Below are positions 13,116-34,814 of a stretch of DNA of 64,000 nt, in pieces. Positions within the stretch are counted from its first letter, which is position 1. Every line of letters starts with the position of its first letter. Under the pieces are notes generated by a model. It worked only from the letters and a program-made list of their open reading frames with translations. It was not told the origin of the DNA and did not search any database. The DNA comes from an uncultured Bacteroidales bacterium (lineage in GTDB: Bacteria > Bacteroidota > Bacteroidia > Bacteroidales > VadinHA17). The DNA lies in NCBI GenBank assembly GCA_963725585.1, contig CAVRYU010000009.1:413070-477069 (forward strand), read 5' to 3'. Made by a program: the position numbers and the translations under genes.

Positions 13116-14279
13116 CTATAAATTCAATTCTTTTATTCTTTCTTTTGCTTCCTTCAGCCTTTCATTCGACGCGCACAAAGATATTCGAATATACCGTTCT
13201 CCCATACTTCCGAAAATGAAGCCAGGGGTTATGAATACATGAGCTTTATTAAGTATCTCCTCTACAAAATCCTCACAGCTTCCGGTTTCATCGGGTATCC
13301 TTCCCCAAACGAAAAGACCGGTCTGTTCCCTGCTGAATTTACAGGACAGTAGTTCCATTATGGATTCAGCAGTTTCACGGCGTTCCGTATAAACTTTATT
13401 TACTGTGCCATACCACGATCGGGGATTACCAAGAGCTTCAGCTGCTGCCAGCTGAAGAGGCAGGAACATTCCTGAATCCATATTGCTTTTTACTTTAAGA
13501 ATATTCCTGATATAATCGCTGTTCCCGGCCACCATCCCAATCCTCCATCCTGCCATGTTATGGGATTTGCTTAATGAATTTAGCTCAAGTGAATTTTCCA
13601 TAGCACCCTCCACTGAAAGAAGACTCAGATAATCTTTATTAAGTATGAAGCTGTAAGGATTGTCGTTGCACAAAAGGATGTTGTGATCGCGGGAAAATGA
13701 GACCAGTTTCCGGAAGAGGCTTACAGATCCTTTTGTTCCGGTTGGCATATGAGGGTAATTAATCCACATAAGCTTTACATTGGCAAGGTTCTCTTTTTCA
13801 ATGGCATCGATATCCGGTAACCAGCCGCTTTTTTCATCAAGATCATAATATCTTACCTTTCCTCCGACAAGGTTTGTCACTGAAGAGTAGGTCGGATAGC
13901 CCGGATTTGGAACAAGCACTTCATCTCCGGGATTTACGAAAGCCATACTGATATGCATGATTCCCTCCTTGCTACCCATCAGTGGAAGTATTTCAGACCC
14001 AGGATCAAGCTTTACCTTGAAATACTCAAGATACCAGTCAGAGAAAGCTTTCCTTAATACAGGGCTTCCGTTATAGCTGGGATATCCATGAACATTTGGC
14101 TTGCCTGATTCCTCAGCAAGGCGCCTTATCGTATTTTCCGATGGAGGCTGGTCGGGACTTCCTATTCCAAGATTAATAATGTCAGCTCCTGCATTGCGCA
14201 TCTCTTCTATCTGCCTGAGCTTACGGGAAAAATAGTACTCCTGGACACTATTTGTACGATCAGCAGGTTTAACTTTCAT
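13116..14279 (-). CDS. Class I/II PLP aminotransferase (aromatic/prephenate aminotransferase candidate)
   Basis: About 387 aa from the ATG at 14279 (MKVKPADR...). Fold-type-I motifs are present (NPGYPTY, NYPHMPTG, SLSKSHNMAGWRIG). The 14309 start in the track is a TTG extension. Confidence 0.8.
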   Translation of the reverse strand: MKVKPADRTNSVQEYYFSRKLRQIEEMRNAGADIINLGIGSPDQPPSENTIRRLAEESGKPNVHGYPSYNGSPVLRKAFSDWYLEYFKVKLDPGSEILPLMGSKEGIMHISMAFVNPGDEVLVPNPGYPTYSSVTNLVGGKVRYYDLDEKSGWLPDIDAIEKENLANVKLMWINYPHMPTGTKGSVSLFRKLVSFSRDHNILLCNDNPYSFILNKDYLSLLSVEGAMENSLELNSLSKSHNMAGWRIGMVAGNSDYIRNILKVKSNMDSGMFLPLQLAAAEALGNPRSWYGTVNKVYTERRETAESIMELLSCKFSREQTGLFVWGRIPDETGSCEDFVEEILNKAHVFITPGFIFGSMGERYIRISLCASNERLKEAKERIKELNL

Positions 14280-15099
14280 AAAGTATGTCTCCTTTATTGT
14301 AAACACCAAGTACCTCTAAATTGCTTGTATATTCTTTTAGAATGGATTCAATAATCTTCATATCGGAATTGTCAGGCAGTTCAAGGTCGAGGTAGAACAT
14401 GTATTCCCAATCACCGTTCAACCTGGGTACTGACTGAATCTTGGAGAGATTGATGTTCATTTCAGCAAGCTTCACAAGAACGGCAGCGAGTGATCCTGGT
14501 TTGTGTCCTGTAGCAAAACAGATTGAGACTTTATTCCCTGTCTTATTTCCTTTTTCCTCACTGCCAATCACAAGGAACCTGGTGTAATTTTTCTTGTATG
14601 TCTCAATCCCTCCTGCGATGATTTCAAGACCATATATTTCAGCTGCATTGGAAGAAGCTATAGCTGCAATTTTTTTCAGCTTGTGTTCCGATATCAGTTT
14701 TGCGCTTCCGGCAGTATCGTCCGATTCGACAAGTGTTATTTCAGGGTACTGGTTCAGGAAAGTCATACACTGTTCCAGTGCAATCGGATGTGACCTGATC
14801 TGTTTTATCTCGTGAATAGTTTGACCGGGAAGAGCCATCAGGTTCTGCTTAACCCTGAGATTATGTTCCCCCAGCATTTTTAGTCCCGATTCCCTTATAA
14901 GACTGTAATTGTAAAGGATACTTCCCGACCGCGCATTTTCGATGGCCATCATTGCCAGATCGGCTTTCCCTTCCATGACGGAGTTCAGAGTCTGGTCAAA
15001 AGTCGCGCAGGGGACTATTTCTATATCTTTATTACTAAAAAACTGCCTGGCTGCAACTTCGTGAAAACATCCTTTTTCTCCCTGTACCGAAATTTTCAT
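14269..15099 (-). CDS. pheA: Prephenate dehydratase with C-terminal ACT domain
   Basis: 276 aa. The PDT domain starts ISVQGEKGCFHEVAA. An ACT-like tail follows (KPGSLAAVLVKLAEMNINLSKIQS). Confidence 0.85.
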   Translation of the reverse strand: MKISVQGEKGCFHEVAARQFFSNKDIEIVPCATFDQTLNSVMEGKADLAMMAIENARSGSILYNYSLIRESGLKMLGEHNLRVKQNLMALPGQTIHEIKQIRSHPIALEQCMTFLNQYPEITLVESDDTAGSAKLISEHKLKKIAAIASSNAAEIYGLEIIAGGIETYKKNYTRFLVIGSEEKGNKTGNKVSICFATGHKPGSLAAVLVKLAEMNINLSKIQSVPRLNGDWEYMFYLDLELPDNSDMKIIESILKEYTSNLEVLGVYNKGDILYES

Positions 15100-15113: not shown

Positions 15114-15145
15114 AAAAAAAGAAGGGTCCCTTTTTGGGGACCCTT
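15114..15145 (-). terminator. Intrinsic terminator of the Phe attenuator, 14 nt upstream of the pheA start
   Basis: The minus strand reads AAGGGTCCCcaaaaaGGGACCCTTcttttttt. Confidence 0.8.
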
Positions 15146-15183
15146 GCTTATATATGATTTCTTATCAGTATACAAAAATCCCC

Positions 15184-15249
15184 TTATTTCTTTTTGCAGT
15201 AAAAAAAGAAGAAGAAAAAAGAGAAAAAACTGTTGTATACAATATTCAT
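15184..15249 (-). CDS. Phe/Tyr leader peptide MNIVYNSFFSFFFFFFYCKKK
   Basis: 21-codon ORF with 8 Phe and 2 Tyr codons. It lies between a TAnnTTTG box and the terminator. Confidence 0.8.
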   Translation of the reverse strand: MNIVYNSFFSFFFFFFYCKKK

Positions 15250-15269
15250 TGATTAGGGTTATTGGCTTA

Positions 15270-15277
15270 CAAAAGTA
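15270..15277 (-). promoter_or_regulatory. Bacteroidota -7 promoter box (TACTTTTG) for the aromatic operon leader
   Basis: Matches the TAnnTTTG consensus, 20 nt upstream of the leader ATG. Confidence 0.55.
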
Positions 15278-15536: not shown

Positions 15537-16071
15537 TTAAGACAGAATCATCAGATGGTACAGCAGATCAGCAGCTTCGTTTTTGAACAGTTCCGGATTA
15601 TCATCTTTTGCTTCAATAATCAGTTCGACAGCCTCTTCACCGACTTTCTGGGTGATTTTGTTTAACCCTTTGAGGAACAGCTTGTTCGTATATGATTCCC
15701 TGATATTATTATCTATTCTTTGACTTATGATTTGTTCCAGCTCAAATATGAAACCTTTTGGTGTTTCTTCCCCGAAGCATGATTTTCTTCCAGTATGGCA
15801 AACCGGTCCTGCCGGATTTACTTTAATCAGCAGAGCAGTCATTATCACAATCTGTTGTTATTTCTTTAACAATAAGGAAATTACCTGAAGTTTCACCTTT
15901 TGTCCAGAGCCGGTTTTTGCTCCGGCTGAAAAATGTGACTTTCCCTTCCTCCTGAGTTTTTTTGAATGCTTCTTCATTCATATACCCGACCATAAGAACC
16001 TGAAGGGAATTATTGTCCTGAATTACAACCGGAACAAGACCATTACCTTTGTTAAAATCAATATTATTCAT
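15537..16071 (-). pseudogene. hisI: Bifunctional phosphoribosyl-AMP cyclohydrolase / phosphoribosyl-ATP pyrophosphatase, one frameshift as assembled
   Basis: The HisI part reads (..[30 protein letters not shown]) and then CSAD*. The next frame continues [22 protein letters not shown] plus the HisE part. The frames join near 15838-15850. Confidence 0.85.
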
Positions 16072-19294: not shown

Positions 19295-20322
19295 AGTTTA
19301 ATTCTTTGCAAAGCGGTTAAAAGTTTGTTGTTTTCTTTTTCCGTTCCAACCGTTATCCGTATGCATCCTGGAACCATTTTGTTCCTGTTTCTTACAATGA
19401 TTTTATTATCAATTAGTTCAGAGTATATCATGTCGGCATCCCTCGTCTTGACAAGGAGAAAATTCGAGTCGGACGGAAAGACCTTTTCAATTATACTCAT
19501 TTTTTCAAGAGCATTTATAAGTCTTTCCCTTTCCTTTCTGATCAGGCTGATATTGTTTTTCAACAGATCAATATGCTTAAGAGATTTCAGGGCTGCTTCC
19601 TGATTTAGGGTGCTGATATTATATGGTGGTTTCATCTTATTGAAATACAATACCAAGGAAGGATCCATGAATGCCATTCCGACTCTCGCTGCAGCAAGGC
19701 CCATAGCTTTGCTGAAGGTCTGCATTACGATAAGATTGCTGTATCGGTTGATCATAGTTTTAAATGATCTTTTATCAGAGAAATCAATATATGCTTCATC
19801 AATTACAACAATCCCGTTAAAACCTGAAATAATCGATTCAATTTCGAATCCTATCATTGAGTTTCCGGTAGGATTATTCGGTGAGCATACAAAGATAAGC
19901 TTCAGAGCTGGATCTTTAAGTTCCGGGAGGACACTTTTATATTCAATCTGGAAATCATCCGAGAGAGGGATCTTTACAAGCTGCACATCATTTATTGCTG
20001 CTGAAACTTCGTACATCCCGTAAGTTGGAGTAAAGGTGAGCGCTTTGTCAGTTCCCGGATTGCAGAATATCCTGAAACTCAGATCGATAATCTCGTCACT
20101 CCCATTTCCGAGGAATATATTTTCTTCAGGTACACCTTTTATTTTACTTATCGCTGTCTTGAGTTCCCTCTGGTACGGGTCGGGGTATCTGTTAAGATCT
20201 CCATAAGGATTTTCATTGGCATCGAGAAAGATTCCATCTTTACCCTTGAATTCATCCCGTGCGCAGGAGTAGGGGATAAGGGTCTTTACATTTTCTCTTA
20301 CGAGTTTATTAATATCAGCCAT
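19291..20322 (-). CDS. hisC: Histidinol-phosphate aminotransferase
   Basis: 343 aa ([23 protein letters not shown]). Confidence 0.9.
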
Positions 20323-21605
20323 TTCCGAGCGATTTTAAACGTATTGTAACTGCGTTCTTATGGCCATGCAAAAGTTCGGCCTCAGCCATCTTCTCGATGA
20401 CAGGTCCAAGGTTTCTTAGGCCTTCAGCAGAAATCTCCTGGAATGTTATTTTTTTCACAAAGCTATCCACTGAAACACCGCCGAAACTCTTTGCACTGCC
20501 AGCTGTTGGCAGTGTATGGTTTGTTCCTGAAGCATAGTCTCCGGCACTTTCGCAGCTGTATTTTCCAAGGAACACTGATCCCGGCATTTGTAACCTGTCC
20601 CGCAAGCAATGATGGATCGGATGTTGAGATTATAAGATGCTCCGGGGCATAAAGGTTGCTCAGTTCAATACAATCCTGGAGTGAGTTTAGGAGAATCAGG
20701 GAGCTGTTTTCAAGCGACTTAAGAGCTATCTCTTTTCTGGGTAAAAGATCTACCTGTTTATGGATTTCAGCTTCAATTGCATTTATCAGCTCCGAATTAT
20801 CTGTCAGCATGATTACCTGGCTGTCGGTTCCGTGTTCAGCCTGGGACAGGAGATCCGAAGCAACAAATGACGGGTCAGCATATCTATCAGCAATTACAAG
20901 GACCTCGCTTGGTCCGGCTGGCATATCAATCGCGATCCCGTCGAGCTGAACCATCTCCTTTGCTTTCGTAACATACTGGTTCCCCGGACCAAAAATCTTA
21001 TCAGCTTTTGGTACGGATTCTGTACCAAAAGCCATTGCTGCTATAGCCTGGGCACCACCGATCCTGAAGATATCCGTGACCCCTGCAATGTGTGCTGCAT
21101 ATAATATTAGCGGATTTACATCTCCGGTCTTGTCGGGAGGTGTACAGAGGATAATCTCCCGGCACCCGGCTATTTTTGCCGGCACAGCCAGCATGAGAAC
21201 AGTTGAAAACAGCGGAGCAGTGCCACCGGGGATATATAATCCGACACTTCTGATCGGTACATTCTTTCTCCAGCAATTTACTCCTTTTGTCGTCTCAACA
21301 ACCTGTTCATTATTTAGTTGTGGCCTGTGAAATTTTTCAATATTGGATTTCGCAACATCGATTGCATCTTTTAAAGCAGATGGTACTTTATCAGCTGATT
21401 CTGCAATTTCAGAACTTTGCACTCTCAGATTTTTAAGTGAGACGCCGTCAAATTTCTCTGATAATTCAAAAATCGCTCTGTCGCCCGAGCTTTTTACCTG
21501 GCGCAAAATAGCGGAAACAGTCTCCTCGAGTCCCGACCGGTCCAAAGAGGGACGTTTACAGAGGGAATCCCATTTATCCCTTTCCGGGTATTGAATGATT
21601 TTCAT
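20315..21605 (-). pseudogene. hisD: Histidinol dehydrogenase, one frameshift as assembled
   Basis: The 380-aa frame is HisD up to ..LLAGQVTNAG and then turns to nonsense. The other frame continues SVFLGKYSCESAGDYASGTNHTLPT... The frames join with one extra base in gccgggatcagtg (about 20575-20590). Confidence 0.9.
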
Positions 21606-22462
21606 TACAATATCATTTTCTCGATAGGTATTACAAGTATTCCTTCAGCTCCTGCATTTTTAAGCTGGTTGATCCTGTCCCAGAATTCGTCCTCCTTAAC
21701 TACAGAGTGTATACTGCACCAGCCTTTTTCCTCGAGCGGCAGGATTGTAGGACTTTTTACACCGGGAAGGATTTTACAGATATCGTGCAACGCTTCAAGC
21801 GGAGCATTAAGAAGTATGTATTTATTTTCCTTTGCGTTTTTTACAGCTCTGATCCTGAAGAGAAGCTTATCCAGAATACTCTGTTTCTTTGAATCAAGGT
21901 TTTTATTAGAGATAATAACTGCCTGACTTTTCAGAATGGTGCTGACTTCACATAATCCATTGGTCATCAAAGTACTGCCGGAGCTGACAATATCGCACAC
22001 AGCATCTGCCAGACCGATCCCGGGTGCTATTTCAACGCTTCCGCTGATCTCTTCTATTTCAGCATTGATATTGTTTTCTTTAAGATATTCAGTAAGAAGC
22101 CTGGGATAACTGGTTGCAATTTTTTTGTTCATAAAATATTCAGGACCAGTGAAGGTTGATTCTTTGGGAATTGCAAGGCTCAAACGGCAATGTGCGAAAC
22201 CCAGTTGTTCAAGTATTGATACATCCTTATTTTTTTCGAGAACCATGTTCTCACCAAGAATCCCTATATCGGCAACCTGTTGTTCGACATACTGGGGGAT
22301 ATCATCATCCCGTAAGAACAGAATTTCGACAGGGAAATTTACAGCGTTAGTCTTAAGGACGTCAGTGCCATTAGAAAATTTTATCCCGCACTCTTCCAAT
22401 AGTTTATGGGAGTTCTCGCTTAACCGGCCTTTTTTCTGGATCGCAATTTTAAGTTTGCTCAT
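21605..22462 (-). CDS. hisG: ATP phosphoribosyltransferase (long form)
   Basis: 285 aa (MSKLKIAIQKKGRLSE...). It is the first gene of the his operon. Its TAA overlaps the hisD ATG (TAATG). Confidence 0.9.
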   Translation of the reverse strand: MSKLKIAIQKKGRLSENSHKLLEECGIKFSNGTDVLKTNAVNFPVEILFLRDDDIPQYVEQQVADIGILGENMVLEKNKDVSILEQLGFAHCRLSLAIPKESTFTGPEYFMNKKIATSYPRLLTEYLKENNINAEIEEISGSVEIAPGIGLADAVCDIVSSGSTLMTNGLCEVSTILKSQAVIISNKNLDSKKQSILDKLLFRIRAVKNAKENKYILLNAPLEALHDICKILPGVKSPTILPLEEKGWCSIHSVVKEDEFWDRINQLKNAGAEGILVIPIEKMIL

Positions 22463-22500
22463 TTTTATTTTTGTTTAATCCGGGCAAACCATCGGGGAAT

Positions 22501-22530
22501 AAAAAACCCGTCAGATCTGCTCAGACGGGT
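22501..22530 (-). terminator. Intrinsic terminator of the His attenuator, about 38 nt upstream of hisG
   Basis: The minus strand reads ACCCGTCTGAgcagaTCAGACGGGTtttttt: a 10-bp perfect stem plus a U-tract. Confidence 0.85.
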
Positions 22531-22561
22531 TATGATATTTTGATACAACTACATATCACTT

Positions 22562-22618
22562 TCATTTCGCCTGAGAGCAAGGATGAAAATGGTGATGATG
22601 TAATTGAAATTGATACAT
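22562..22618 (-). CDS. His leader peptide MYQFQLHHHHFHPCSQAK
   Basis: 18-codon ORF with 5 His codons (HHHHFH). It lies between a TAnnTTTG box and the terminator. Confidence 0.85.
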   Translation of the reverse strand: MYQFQLHHHHFHPCSQAK

Positions 22619-22638
22619 ATATATTATGATTCTAAATG

Positions 22639-22646
22639 CAAAGATA
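22639..22646 (-). promoter_or_regulatory. Bacteroidota -7 promoter box (TATCTTTG) for the his leader
   Basis: Matches TAnnTTTG, 20 nt upstream of the leader ATG. Confidence 0.55.
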
Positions 22647-22712
22647 TTAAAATATTACTAATTGTCAATTTAATACGTTAAAAAGTTGTAGCGACGCGCA
22701 ATTGTAAAAGTT

Positions 22713-22741
22713 GTAGAGACGCGCAATTTGCACGTCTCTAC
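22713..22741 (-). terminator. Stem-loop downstream of leuB (candidate terminator of the ilv-leu operon)
   Basis: GTAGAGACGcgcaatttgcaCGTCTCTAC is a 9-bp stem. On the minus strand it is followed by aactttta. A related half-copy sits at 22686-22705. Confidence 0.45.
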
Positions 22742-22810
22742 TATTATACCCATTTATAGCTTCTTTACTTCGAAACCATTTCTGCTTGTTTGAAACTATT
22801 TCTGCTTGTT

Positions 22811-23872
22811 TCAAACCCGCTCTGCTACCAGATCACCAACCTCAGTGGTTGAAAATCCCATCTTCCCGGCACCGAGGTCCTTTAACTTATTGGCAGTCAC
22901 ATCCATGATGGCATTCTCAATAGCCTGCGCTGCTTTTGCTTCTCCAAGATGCTCAAGCATCATTGCTCCGCATGCAATGGCTGCCAGAGGATTGATAACA
23001 TTCATTCCGGTGTATTTCGGGGCCGATCCGCCAATAGGCTCAAACATCGAAACTCCCTCAGGATTAATGTTTCCTCCTGCAGCGATCCCCATCCCTCCCT
23101 GGGTTATTGCCCCGAGATCAGTGATGATATCCCCGAACATATTTGTTGTAACTATTACATCAAACCATTCAGGATTTTTGACCATCCACATACATGTTGC
23201 ATCAACATGATAATATTCCCTCTTAATATCCGGAAAATCGGTTTGTCCCATTTCATGAAATGCCCTTTCCCAGAGATCAAAAACATATGTCAGGACATTG
23301 GTCTTACCGCAAAGTGCCAAAGTCTTTTTCCTGTTTCTTTTCCTTGTGAATTCAAAAGCATATCTTAAACACCGGTCAACCTGAAAACGGTTATATACCA
23401 TATTCTGAATCGCAACTTCATGTGCGGTACCCTTCATGGTAACTCCTCCGCTTCCTGTATATACATCTCCTGTATTTTCCCTGACAACCACATAATCAAT
23501 ATGTTCCGGACCCTTGTCCCTGAGAGGCGTGGCAACACCAGGGTATAGTTTAATCGGACGAAGATTAATATACTGATCGAGCTCAAAACGAAGCTTTAGA
23601 AGAATTCCCTTTTCAAGAATTCCCGGTTTCACATCAGGATGCCCGATTGCACCAAGGAAAATTGAATCAAATTTTCTGAGTTGTTCCGGTGCCGATTCTG
23701 GTAAAACTTCCCCGGTCCTGAGATAACGATCTCCTCCGAAATCAAATTCCTCGAAATTGAGCTTAAAACCGTATTTTGAAGCAGCGGCACTCAGTACTTT
23801 TCTTCCCTCTCTTACCACCTCCGGGCCCGTTCCGTCACCAGGGATGGCTGCAATATTGTAAGTTTTGTTCAT
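22811..23872 (-). CDS. leuB: 3-isopropylmalate dehydrogenase
   Basis: 353 aa (IAAIPGDGTGPEV..., NMFGDIITDLGA, GSAPKY). Confidence 0.9.
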   Translation of the reverse strand: MNKTYNIAAIPGDGTGPEVVREGRKVLSAAASKYGFKLNFEEFDFGGDRYLRTGEVLPESAPEQLRKFDSIFLGAIGHPDVKPGILEKGILLKLRFELDQYINLRPIKLYPGVATPLRDKGPEHIDYVVVRENTGDVYTGSGGVTMKGTAHEVAIQNMVYNRFQVDRCLRYAFEFTRKRNRKKTLALCGKTNVLTYVFDLWERAFHEMGQTDFPDIKREYYHVDATCMWMVKNPEWFDVIVTTNMFGDIITDLGAITQGGMGIAAGGNINPEGVSMFEPIGGSAPKYTGMNVINPLAAIACGAMMLEHLGEAKAAQAIENAIMDVTANKLKDLGAGKMGFSTTEVGDLVAERV

Positions 23873-32813: not shown

Positions 32814-34646
32814 TTATATAATCCGAACTGCTCCCTTATCTGCTGAGCTTACCAGTTTTGCATATGCTTTAAGTGAAGGCGGAATTGCCCTGTTTCTTTT
32901 TGAAGGTTTAAAGGCATTATCCCCTTTAAGTTGTTCTTCATGAATTCTTTCGACAAACTCATTTTCTGAAATAAGGGCATTTATTTTACGGCCGGGAACA
33001 TCTATTTCAATCTGATCACCTTTCCTGAGAACAGCAATTTCCCCACTTGCTGCTGCCTCTGGCGATAAATGTCCTATCGATAACCCTGATGTACCTCCTG
33101 AAAACCTTCCGTCAGTTATTAGAGCGCATTTCTTATCGAGAAGTTTTGATTTCAGATAGGAAGTAGGGTAAAGCATTTCCTGCATACCTGGTCCTCCTTT
33201 TGGCCCTTCATACCTTATAACCACAGCATCACCCTGGGTTACAATTCCTTTTAGAATTCCGTCCACAGCCTCTTCCTGCGATTCGAAAATAATTGCCGGG
33301 CCCTTAAATTTTAAAAGAGAAGGATCGATGCCCGCAGTTTTAACAATACATCCGTTCTTTGCGATGTTTCCATAAAGCACAGCGAGACCTCCGTCTTTAT
33401 TATAGGCGTTTTGCATGCTTCTTATACATCCGTTCTTCCTGTCGGTATCAGGATCGTCATAAAAAGTGCTCTGGGAACCCATCTCAAGATTCTTTTTCAT
33501 TGATGGAGCACTCATCCAAAGATCTTTTGCCTCAGGCAGGATTTCACTGCTCATAATGTCCCAATCGGCAATTGCCTTGTGCAGGCTGTTATAATCGATA
33601 CGTTTCACAGAACTATCTATCAGTTTATTGCGTTCAAGTTCTCCCATTATTGAAAGAATTCCTCCGGCTCTGTTAACATCCTGTATGTGGTACCTGGAAC
33701 TCGGCGAAACTTTACAGATGTTAGGTATCCGTCGCGATAGTTCATCAATATCTTTCATTGTAAAATCAACACCGGCTTCATGAGCAATTGCAAGAAGATG
33801 GAGAACAGTATTAGTCGATCCGCCCATGGCTATATCAAGCGACATTGCATTCATAAACGCCTGTTTTGTTGCAATTGATCGCGGCAAAATGTCTGAATCA
33901 CCGTCGACATAATATCTGTTTGCGAGACTGACTATTAATTTTGCGGCCTTTTCGAAAAGTTTCAGTCTGTTGGAATGAGTGGCAAGTACTGTACCGTTAC
34001 CGGGCAATGCCAGACCAAGGGCTTCAACAAGGCAGTTCATGGAGTTTGCTGTAAACATCCCTGAGCATGATCCGCATGTAGGGCAAGCCGACATCTCCAT
34101 TTCATAAAGGTCCTTATCACTTACAGAGTCATCGGCTGCAGATACCATCGCGTCGATCAGATCGATATTTCTGTTCCGGTAGTTGCCGGCCTCCATGGGC
34201 CCGCCTGAAACAAATACTGCTGGTATATTCAATCTCATCGATGCCATAAGCATACCAGGAGTTATTTTATCGCAATTGCTTATACATATCATTGCATCAG
34301 CCAGATGGGCATTACATACATATTCTACGCTGTCTGCTATAAGTTCCCTTGACGGGAGGGAATAAAGCATTCCTTCATGCCCCATTGCTATGCCGTCGTC
34401 TATTGCTATAGTATTGAATTCAGCTGCAAACAGACCCTGCTTTTCAATCTCTTTTTTTATGGACTGTCCTATGCTATGAAGATGAACATGTCCGGGAACG
34501 AATTGCGAGAAGGAGTTGACGATTGCTATCACGGGTTTTCCGAACTGATCCTCTTTCATTCCGTTTGCCCGCCAGAGACTTCTTGCACCGGCCATGTTCC
34601 TTCCTGTTGTTGTTCTTGAACTTCTGAGCTGATTTTTCATCGCCAT
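32814..34646 (-). CDS. ilvD: Dihydroxy-acid dehydratase
   Basis: 610 aa ([43 protein letters not shown]). Confidence 0.9.
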
Positions 34647-34657
34647 AAAGATCTTTT

Positions 34658-34690
34658 AAAAAAAAAGCTTCCCGGTGATCCGGAAAGCCT
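34658..34690 (-). terminator. Intrinsic terminator of the Ile/Leu attenuator, 11 nt upstream of the ilvD start
   Basis: The minus strand reads GCTTTCCGGatcaCCGGGAAGCttttttttt. Confidence 0.8.
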
Positions 34691-34724
34691 CTGTATGTTT
34701 ATATTAATACATATTATTCCCGGA

Positions 34725-34784
34725 TCATTTGCCTGTGGCAAGAATGAGGATGAGGGCGATAATATGGATTAAAGTTTTCTTCAC
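34725..34784 (-). CDS. Ile/Leu-rich leader peptide (V/M)KKTLIHIIALILILATGK
   Basis: 19-codon ORF with 5 Ile and 4 Leu codons. It is GTG-initiated, with no in-frame ATG. The stop region tgatccgg is complementary to ccggatca in the terminator 5' arm and loop. Confidence 0.65.
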   Translation of the reverse strand: MKKTLIHIIALILILATGK

Positions 34785-34806
34785 TGTTTTCTTTAAAATT
34801 GAATGA

Positions 34807-34814
34807 CAAAAGTA
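34807..34814 (-). promoter_or_regulatory. Bacteroidota -7 promoter box (TACTTTTG) for the ilv-leu leader
   Basis: Matches TAnnTTTG, 22 nt upstream of the leader GTG. Confidence 0.5.

Follow-up and report, generated by a model that had tools for sequence, protein, structure and literature searches.

In the enterobacterial his leader, hisL, a short open reading frame (ORF) with a run of His codons (seven in a row in E. coli) is combined with hairpins that form alternatively and, ahead of hisG, an intrinsic terminator. In other phyla, his operons are controlled by T-boxes or by the HisR repressor (PMC9413887). Within Bacteroidota, the closest described system is the hisG leader of Flavobacterium psychrophilum, THC0290_N_0824. 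Guerin et al. (2021, ISME Commun, PMC9723704, Table S7) assigned this leader to leader peptide attenuation on the basis of a map of transcription start sites (TSS), a 129-nt 5′ transcript and condition-dependent read-through. The transcript extends from a mapped TSS to the homologous terminator, and the leader precedes a his operon that is induced in minimal medium; according to Guerin et al. it is conserved in Flavobacteriaceae and has no Rfam match (PMC9723704). We analysed a 64-kb stretch of DNA (hereafter the window) from an uncultured Bacteroidales bacterium (contig CAVRYU010000009.1) that carries a leader of this kind upstream of hisG. We interpret it, with a probability of about 0.85, as a histidine-sensing, ribosome-mediated transcription attenuator of hisGDCBHAF(IE) that belongs to a leader family widespread in Bacteroidota. 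Going by the 2021 F. psychrophilum entry, the family is already known and the window leader is not the first in the phylum.

The leader peptides of the window (MYQFQLHHHHFHPCSQAK) and of F. psychrophilum (MSLNQLHHHHFHICSQAKC) belong to the same family, with core peptides QLHHHHFHPCSQAK and QLHHHHFHICSQAKC respectively. As far as the published entry goes, the F. psychrophilum leader shares the UUGCUCUCAGGCGA strand and, in the authors' fold, the A:B hairpin described below; its terminator is CCCGUUUGAGUACAUCAAACGGG, whereas that of the window, a sequence from Bacteroidales rather than Flavobacteriales, contains a U·U mismatch and has GCAGA as its loop. The parts of PMC9723704 that concern this leader describe no antiterminator pairing, post-terminator element or complementarity to the hisG start. 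A literature search for a Bacteroides his leader found no paper. Vitreschak et al. are said to have listed candidate attenuators in Bacteroidetes/Chlorobi in 2004. Naville & Gautheret (2010) did not cover Bacteroidetes his.

The initial annotation of this DNA had seen in the locus the his attenuator architecture of Enterobacteria. In its logic the window leader does resemble the enterobacterial one. The likeness does not extend to family membership by score: with the proteobacterial His_leader (RF00514), the sole Rfam family with any match to the window leader, the site reached 31.4 bits (E = 0.011 in a 2-kb search), below the gathering score of 49, and membership was rejected. Unlike enterobacterial hisL, the window leader has five His codons (four plus one) and holds its antiterminator 5′ strand inside the ORF, a few codons ahead of the stop, where a ribosome that has reached the stop codon would block it directly.

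All his-leader coordinates refer to the minus strand of the window (Table 1). The MYQFQLHHHHFHPCSQAK ATG begins exactly 20 nt after the TATCTTTG promoter box, and the His codons of the ORF lie at 22600-22589 and 22585-22583 (HHHHFH), so that a short ORF with five cognate codons stands upstream of hisG. Box, 20-nt gap and five-His mini-ORF are all present as the initial annotation had described them. TTG(ACA) is found at 22668-22663, 16-19 nt 5′ of the box, and a sigma-70-type scan returned TTGACA-16-TATCTT at the his leader with 10/12 matches. TAnnTTTG occurs 8-50 nt upstream of 53 of 74 related leaders, most commonly at a distance of 18-19 nt (background 2.1%), and in F. psychrophilum the mapped TSS follows shortly after the equivalent box (PMC9723704, as given for that leader).

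The predicted terminator between the leader ORF and hisG has the hairpin sequence AACCCGUCuGA-GCAGA-UCuGACGGGUU (22531-22505), in which an 8-bp stem (AACCCGUC/GACGGGUU) is followed by a U22523xU22513 mismatch and then GA/UC; U6 follows at 22506-22501 and the folding energy is -13.8 kcal/mol. The T6 run and its spacing of 38 nt from the hisG ATG (22462) agree with what had been reported earlier. The stem had also been described as a perfect 10-bp one, which it is not: the true 3′ arm is TCTGACGGGT and leaves the internal U·U mismatch, whereas the arm assumed before, TCAGACGGGT, is the consensus of relatives. The RNA folding that had been proposed for this region was run on 188 nt (22650-22463; fold z-score -3.08) and gave the terminator in both the minimum free energy (MFE) and the centroid structure. 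In an alignment of 42 leaders (A2), where pairs were counted for explicitly named helices, the terminator is 92.8% paired and four of its pairs have compensatory changes; the RNAalifold consensus of relatives is again the terminator.

Table 1. Coordinates of the his leader elements and of hisG in the 64-kb window.
Feature	Position	Strand	Details and basis
-7 promoter box TATCTTTG, predicted, Bacteroidota type (TAnnTTTG)	22639..22646	minus	read from sequence
Leader peptide ORF MYQFQLHHHHFHPCSQAK, hisL-like	22562..22618	minus	ATG 22618-22616, TGA 22564-22562, 18 codons
Hairpin A:B	22546..22606	minus	His-codon strand 22606-22583 pairs with 22565-22546; MFE and centroid
Region 2 CUCAGGCG, antiterminator 5′ strand	22568..22575	minus	in last ORF codons (SQA codons); conserved pairing
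Intrinsic terminator, predicted	22501..22531	minus	arms D (5′, 22531-22521) and E (3′, 22515-22505) around the loop 22520-22516; U-run 22506-22501
Post-terminator element	22478..22496	minus	E′ (CCCG, 22496-22493) and F (GGUUUGCCCGGAU, 22490-22478)
hisG start region AUGAGCAAACUU, complementary to F	22451..22462	minus	sequence complementarity, pair counts, window folds
hisG (ATP phosphoribosyltransferase), 285 aa	21605..22462	minus	Pfam HisG + HisG_C, E = 2.7e-51

The last codons of the ORF can compete for the terminator 5′ arm. Region 2 (CUCAGGCG) pairs with CGUCUGAG (22527-22520) through eight contiguous pairs, one of them G·U. This antiterminator helix is 91% paired in the 42 leaders; pair 54:126 is G-C in 33 of them and A-U in six, and the 3′ arm of the terminator has changed in step. 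Complementarity between leader and terminator had been noticed before and is real, but its register was different: tgctctcagg with tctgagca was rejected because the contiguous 8-bp CUCAGGCG:CGUCUGAG helix fits the alignment better. A B:C helix (GUGAUAU/AUAUCAU, 22559-22553 with 22538-22532) was also rejected as an inner antiterminator, being 59-82% paired with a register that shifts between clades. The A:B hairpin contains region 2 in its apical part. Its pairing amounts to 70-75% in alignment A2, where 17 of its pairs are changed on both sides and 0/500 shuffles reach its score. In the predicted folds A:B is the ribosome-free, anti-antiterminator structure, in which the His codons are sequestered, and it possibly also acts as a pause structure.

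Nascent RNAs that end just past the terminator 5′ arm were folded for 37 leaders with a ribosome mask reaching from P-site -12 to +15. Pairing of the terminator 5′ arm had a mean probability of 0.45 when no ribosome was present (0.27 in the window) and 0.38 when the ribosome stood at the stop codon (0.25 in the window). When His codon 1 or 3 was in the A site, the mean was 0.94 (0.98 in the window), and the partner of the arm was always the CUCAGGCG-type strand. The antiterminator thus uses the terminator 5′ arm, excludes the terminator and depends on the position of the ribosome in silico.

To compare leaders across the phylum, one genome per species was scanned, which gave 80 hisG loci across Bacteroidota, 76 of them with enough upstream sequence. 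Counting ORFs of ≤45 aa with ≥4 His in 6 residues, located ≤250 nt upstream of hisG, we found a His mini-ORF in 63/76 loci and in 2/2932 control segments of 250 nt from the same loci; the comparison of related hisG leaders that the initial annotation had called for therefore shows the mini-ORF to be kept. HisG homologues in metagenome-assembled genomes (MAGs) of uncultured Bacteroidales are 83-96% identical. The leaders of Bacteroidales (including the window), Flavobacteriales, some Saprospiraceae and Ferruginibacter form class I. The class-I peptide has the motif LHHHHFH.C.QA[RS] in ~50 loci and variable N-terminal residues, and its conserved C-terminal part coincides with RNA pairing strands. 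A covariance model (R1) was trained on 38 class-I leaders, among which neither the window nor its closest relative was included; it scores the window site at 104.4 bits (E = 3e-23) with a full-length match at 22606-22499; 51/80 loci exceed 45 bits and the training members score 82-115 bits. Its R1 score, the peptide motif L-H-H-H-H-F-H-x-C-x-Q-A and the TAnnTTTG box place the window leader in class I. In the closest relative (locus L001, 2339-2503; 96% HisG identity) the leader ORF ends early, with ..KLHHHHFDS and a UGA that sits just before CUCAGGCG, and the downstream RNA sequence is nevertheless retained; the peptide C-terminus therefore seems dispensable and the RNA strand does not.

A single leader class for all Bacteroidota was rejected, class-II leaders scoring 26-42 bits with the class-I model. 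Class II is found upstream of hisG in Chitinophagaceae, Sphingobacteriales and Cytophagales (L036, L043, L048, L051, L062, L064, L071, L074-L079) and has the peptide M..THIHHHHTY(L/P)..G. Its segments ACUUACC / GGUAAGC / GGCUUACC / GGUAAGCC-U6 make a textbook 1:2, 2:3, 3:4 attenuator, with GGCUUACC..GGUAAGCC as the terminator and GCUUACC / GGUAAGC in segments 3 and 4.

These data are best explained by a model in which transcription starts a few nt after TATCTTTG and a ribosome translates the 18-codon leader; we infer the stalling, timing and termination steps from the arrangement of the elements. When His-tRNA is scarce, the ribosome would stall on the HHHH codons (22600-22589), which would melt A:B and leave CUCAGGCG exposed. 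The exposed strand would pair with CGUCUGAG once this had been made, no terminator hairpin would form and RNA polymerase would enter hisG. When His-tRNA is plentiful, the ribosome would reach the UGA and cover CUCAGGCG; if no ribosome were loaded, the A:B hairpin would hold it. In either case the terminator with its U6 would form and transcription would stop 38 nt before hisG. The interpretation as a ribosome-mediated his attenuator is supported: the promoter motif, the His-codon ORF, the A:B hairpin, the antiterminator strand and the terminator are all present, and they are conserved across Bacteroidota. The homologous F. psychrophilum leader lends indirect experimental support.

Several observations weigh against this interpretation. 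A simple promoter/terminator scan called no terminator at the his leader; the U·U mismatch, itself a flaw of the hairpin, makes the loop too long for the scan rule. The ribosome-free state, at 0.45 paired, is not cleanly 'off' in silico, the B:C helix is weak, and the shuffle controls leave phylogenetic relatedness in place. The operon may be decaying, or the frameshifts in hisD and hisIE described below may be assembly indel errors. Finally, once the complete terminator is present, the equilibrium fold favours the terminator under every ribosome mask. A purely thermodynamic switch was rejected on this ground, as the nascent-transcript view alone separates the states; like that of classic attenuators, the switch must then depend on kinetics.

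The leader continues beyond the terminator with a conserved, bistable element that is the sole part of it that might be new. In most class-I leaders, strand F has the sequence UUU[A/G]CUCAGAC (UUUGCCCGGAU in the window, 22488-22478); it follows the U-run at a distance of ~10-45 nt and precedes the hisG AUG by 13-19 nt. It is absent from five short class-I leaders. E′ pairs with the terminator 3′ arm E, while F pairs alternatively with D plus the loop (22526-22514; target GUCUGAG[U/C]AAA) or with the hisG start region (target AUGAG[U/C]AAA(CU)). E′-F as a whole is a near reverse-complement of the entire terminator hairpin. Both helices of F rest on explicit pair counts; RNAalifold, run on the terminator-to-hisG alignment, returned the terminator alone and predicted neither D:F nor F:start. 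The D:F helix is 91-92% paired and 7/11 of its pairs are changed on both sides; at one of its pairs, 23 sequences have U-A and 15 have C-G. The frequent G·U pairs of D:F place the pairing at the RNA level; a DNA-level inverted repeat, as for a protein binding site, was rejected because these G·U pairs stand on the sense strand. The spacer before F also tends to pair with the terminator 3′ arm: the matched duplex has an energy of -6.4, compared with -5.1 when the spacers are shuffled (0/200) and -5.8 when they are exchanged between loci by permutation (15/500).

Two folds are predicted for read-through RNA. In the first, the terminator hairpin coexists with the F:start helix and the AUG is buried; in the second, the terminator sequence and E′-F form one long hairpin and the AUG is free. 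In the window these folds are 0.6 kcal/mol apart (MFE -21.2, long hairpin; centroid -20.6, terminator plus F:start), and in one further leader, L003, they are equally balanced. Several Bacteroidales favour the long hairpin; in flavobacterial leaders, terminator plus F:start is the more stable fold by 3-6 kcal/mol. From these models, which suggest a translational second layer, we tentatively propose that the class-I his leader could be a two-level device, in which RNA structure would preserve the choice made at the U-run and relay it to translation, although we hold this to be somewhat less probable than its converse. In antiterminated transcripts, E′:E and then F:D would form before the start is transcribed, erasing the terminator and leaving the hisG AUG open. 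In leak-through transcripts the terminator hairpin would already have been made, so that F would sequester the hisG start and translation would be silent. The terminator 5′ arm would then serve as a decoy of the start codon region. Bacteroidota initiate translation largely without Shine-Dalgarno (SD) pairing. A parallel exists in the B. subtilis trp leader, where attenuation by TRAP is accompanied by a hairpin that occludes the SD sequence of trpE in read-through transcripts (PMC11602163; Du & Babitzke, 1998). In both cases one leader would decide on termination and, by long-distance refolding, on access to the initiation site of the first gene. The TRAP system has a protein sensor and an SD target, whereas the proposed his layer would have a stalled ribosome as sensor and the AUG and codons 2-4 as target.

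Alternatively, the long hairpin formed by 22526-22507 and 22496-22478 might serve the processing or stability of read-through mRNA as an element of the RNase III type, with the F:start complementarity incidental. The extended helix is 16-19 bp long in several relatives, a size recognised by double-strand-specific RNases, the RNAalifold prediction lacks the F:start helix, and covariation of F:start outside the shared core is modest, pair 67:116 being unpaired in 17/41 sequences. However, over its 11 pairs F:start reaches 81% pairing, compared with 22-38% for slid registers. Its core comprises eight contiguous complementary bases, among them the UG of the start codon, and these pair in 85-100% of loci. 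The two strands also change together: Ser codon 2 is AGC solely where F has G (8/8), and AGU->AAU in the hisG start is matched by C->U in F in four loci. As F:start is moreover the predicted equilibrium structure in most flavobacterial leaders, we regard the processing element as the unlikely explanation, if the most serious of those competing with our readings.

Turning to alternatives to the attenuator itself, control might fall not to a translating ribosome but to a riboswitch for histidine, to an RNA-binding protein with A:B as its target or to a tRNA sensor of the T-box kind. Other means of control are used by his operons elsewhere (T-boxes or HisR; PMC9413887), and the A:B hairpin is long and conserved. 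However, among Rfam matches up to E = 10 in 21500-23500 neither a T-box nor any other family except His_leader was found, and no Rfam 15 family reached its gathering score in the whole window, despite the presence of at least three leader-peptide attenuators; Rfam 15 thus does not cover these Bacteroidota leaders. What is conserved is a His-codon run in frame with start and stop, and the ribosome mask suffices to flip the pairing in silico, so non-ribosomal control appears very improbable.

Less credible still is a mini-ORF that encodes a functional small His-rich peptide, for example a metal-binding one, such that the peptide and not its translation matters. The LHHHHFH.C.QA motif, with its His and Cys residues, is well conserved; yet its C-terminal codons double as the strands whose RNA partners are the terminator arm and the His codons, changes in them are compensated in the RNA, G·U pairs included, and the mini-ORF is always coupled to a terminator before hisG. 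The variable N-terminus, and the L001 peptide that ends after HHHHFDS with its downstream RNA kept, likewise speak against a role of the peptide. We give equally little credence to a chance mini-ORF next to a hairpin and U-run that are the ilv-leu operon terminator or a constitutive terminator: leuB does lie directly upstream on the same strand, short ORFs are abundant and the simple scan made no terminator call, but the excess of mini-ORFs over control segments holds across orders with different upstream genes, the promoter box stands between leuB and the mini-ORF, a hairpin-like repeat region (22738-22700) is closer to leuB, and the pairing of the ORF 3′ end with the terminator arm is conserved with covariation.

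Pfam matches give the gene order hisG-D-C-B-H-A-F-IE, down to ~15537. Two of the genes are split on the minus strand: hisD (20315-21605, split at ~20582) consists of two overlapping ORFs that match Histidinol_dh 2-330 and 324-411, and hisIE (15537-16071, split at ~15823-15848) of two overlapping ORFs that match PRA-CH 1-53 and 53-73 plus PRA-PH. Compared with the intact gene of the closest MAG (L001), the hisD split is caused by one extra G in a GGG run; the splits are either homopolymer assembly errors or real frameshifts. Upstream of the his leader lie leuB (ending at 22811) and the rest of the ilv-leu cluster. The minus-strand sequence from the leuB stop to the his promoter (22680-22811) contains the tandem direct repeats aaacaagcagaaatagtttca / aacaagcagaaatggtttcg and caaattgcgcgtctctacaactttt / acaattgcgcgtcgctacaactttt; the latter repeat holds a GAGACG...CGTCTC hairpin followed by a T-run, possibly the ilv-leu operon terminator.

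The window carries two further leaders on the minus strand. A second leader peptide attenuator (15114-15277) begins with a TACTTTTG box (15277-15270), encodes the Phe mini-ORF MNIVYNSFFSFFFFFFYCKKK (15249-15184, nine Phe) and ends in a AAGGGUCCC-CAAAAA-GGGACCCUU terminator with U7 (15145-15114); it directly precedes the prephenate dehydratase gene pheA (14269-15099) and an aminotransferase gene (13116-14309). The third (34658-34812) again has a TACTTTTG box, a GTG-start, Ile/Leu-rich mini-ORF, MKKTLIHIIALILILATGK (34784-34725) and a GCUUUCCGG-AUCA-CCGGGAAGC terminator with U9 (34688-34658), and is closely followed by ilvD (32814-34646) and the ilvBNC-leuACDB cluster. The his-leader model matches this ilv leader with 44.4 bits (E = 2.6e-8), and a UUCUUGCCACAGGCAAAUGA stretch of the ilv leader resembles the his leader; the likeness suggests that the two may be related. 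As listed in the supplement of PMC9723704, the pheA and ilvE leaders of F. psychrophilum correspond to the Phe and Ile/Leu leaders of the window. Other leader peptide attenuators of Bacteroidota (the Bacteroid-trp Rfam motif and, from the same entries, F. psychrophilum ilvE, pheA and trpE) are alike in architecture and promoter type and differ from the his leader in regulatory codons and sequence.

For the biology of the group, control of the his operon in Bacteroidales by leader peptide attenuation is a well-supported annotation. Because the window also carries Phe and Ile/Leu leaders, ribosome-mediated attenuation seems to be used generally in this lineage to control amino acid operons. The class-I family is absent from Rfam and consequently unannotated in thousands of Bacteroidota genomes and MAGs; our alignment and the R1 model could seed an Rfam-type family. 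If the post-terminator element does couple termination to exposure of the hisG start, the class-I leader would be a compact, protein-free form of combined transcriptional and translational attenuation, and would provide a handle on the control of translation initiation by mRNA structure in Bacteroidota.

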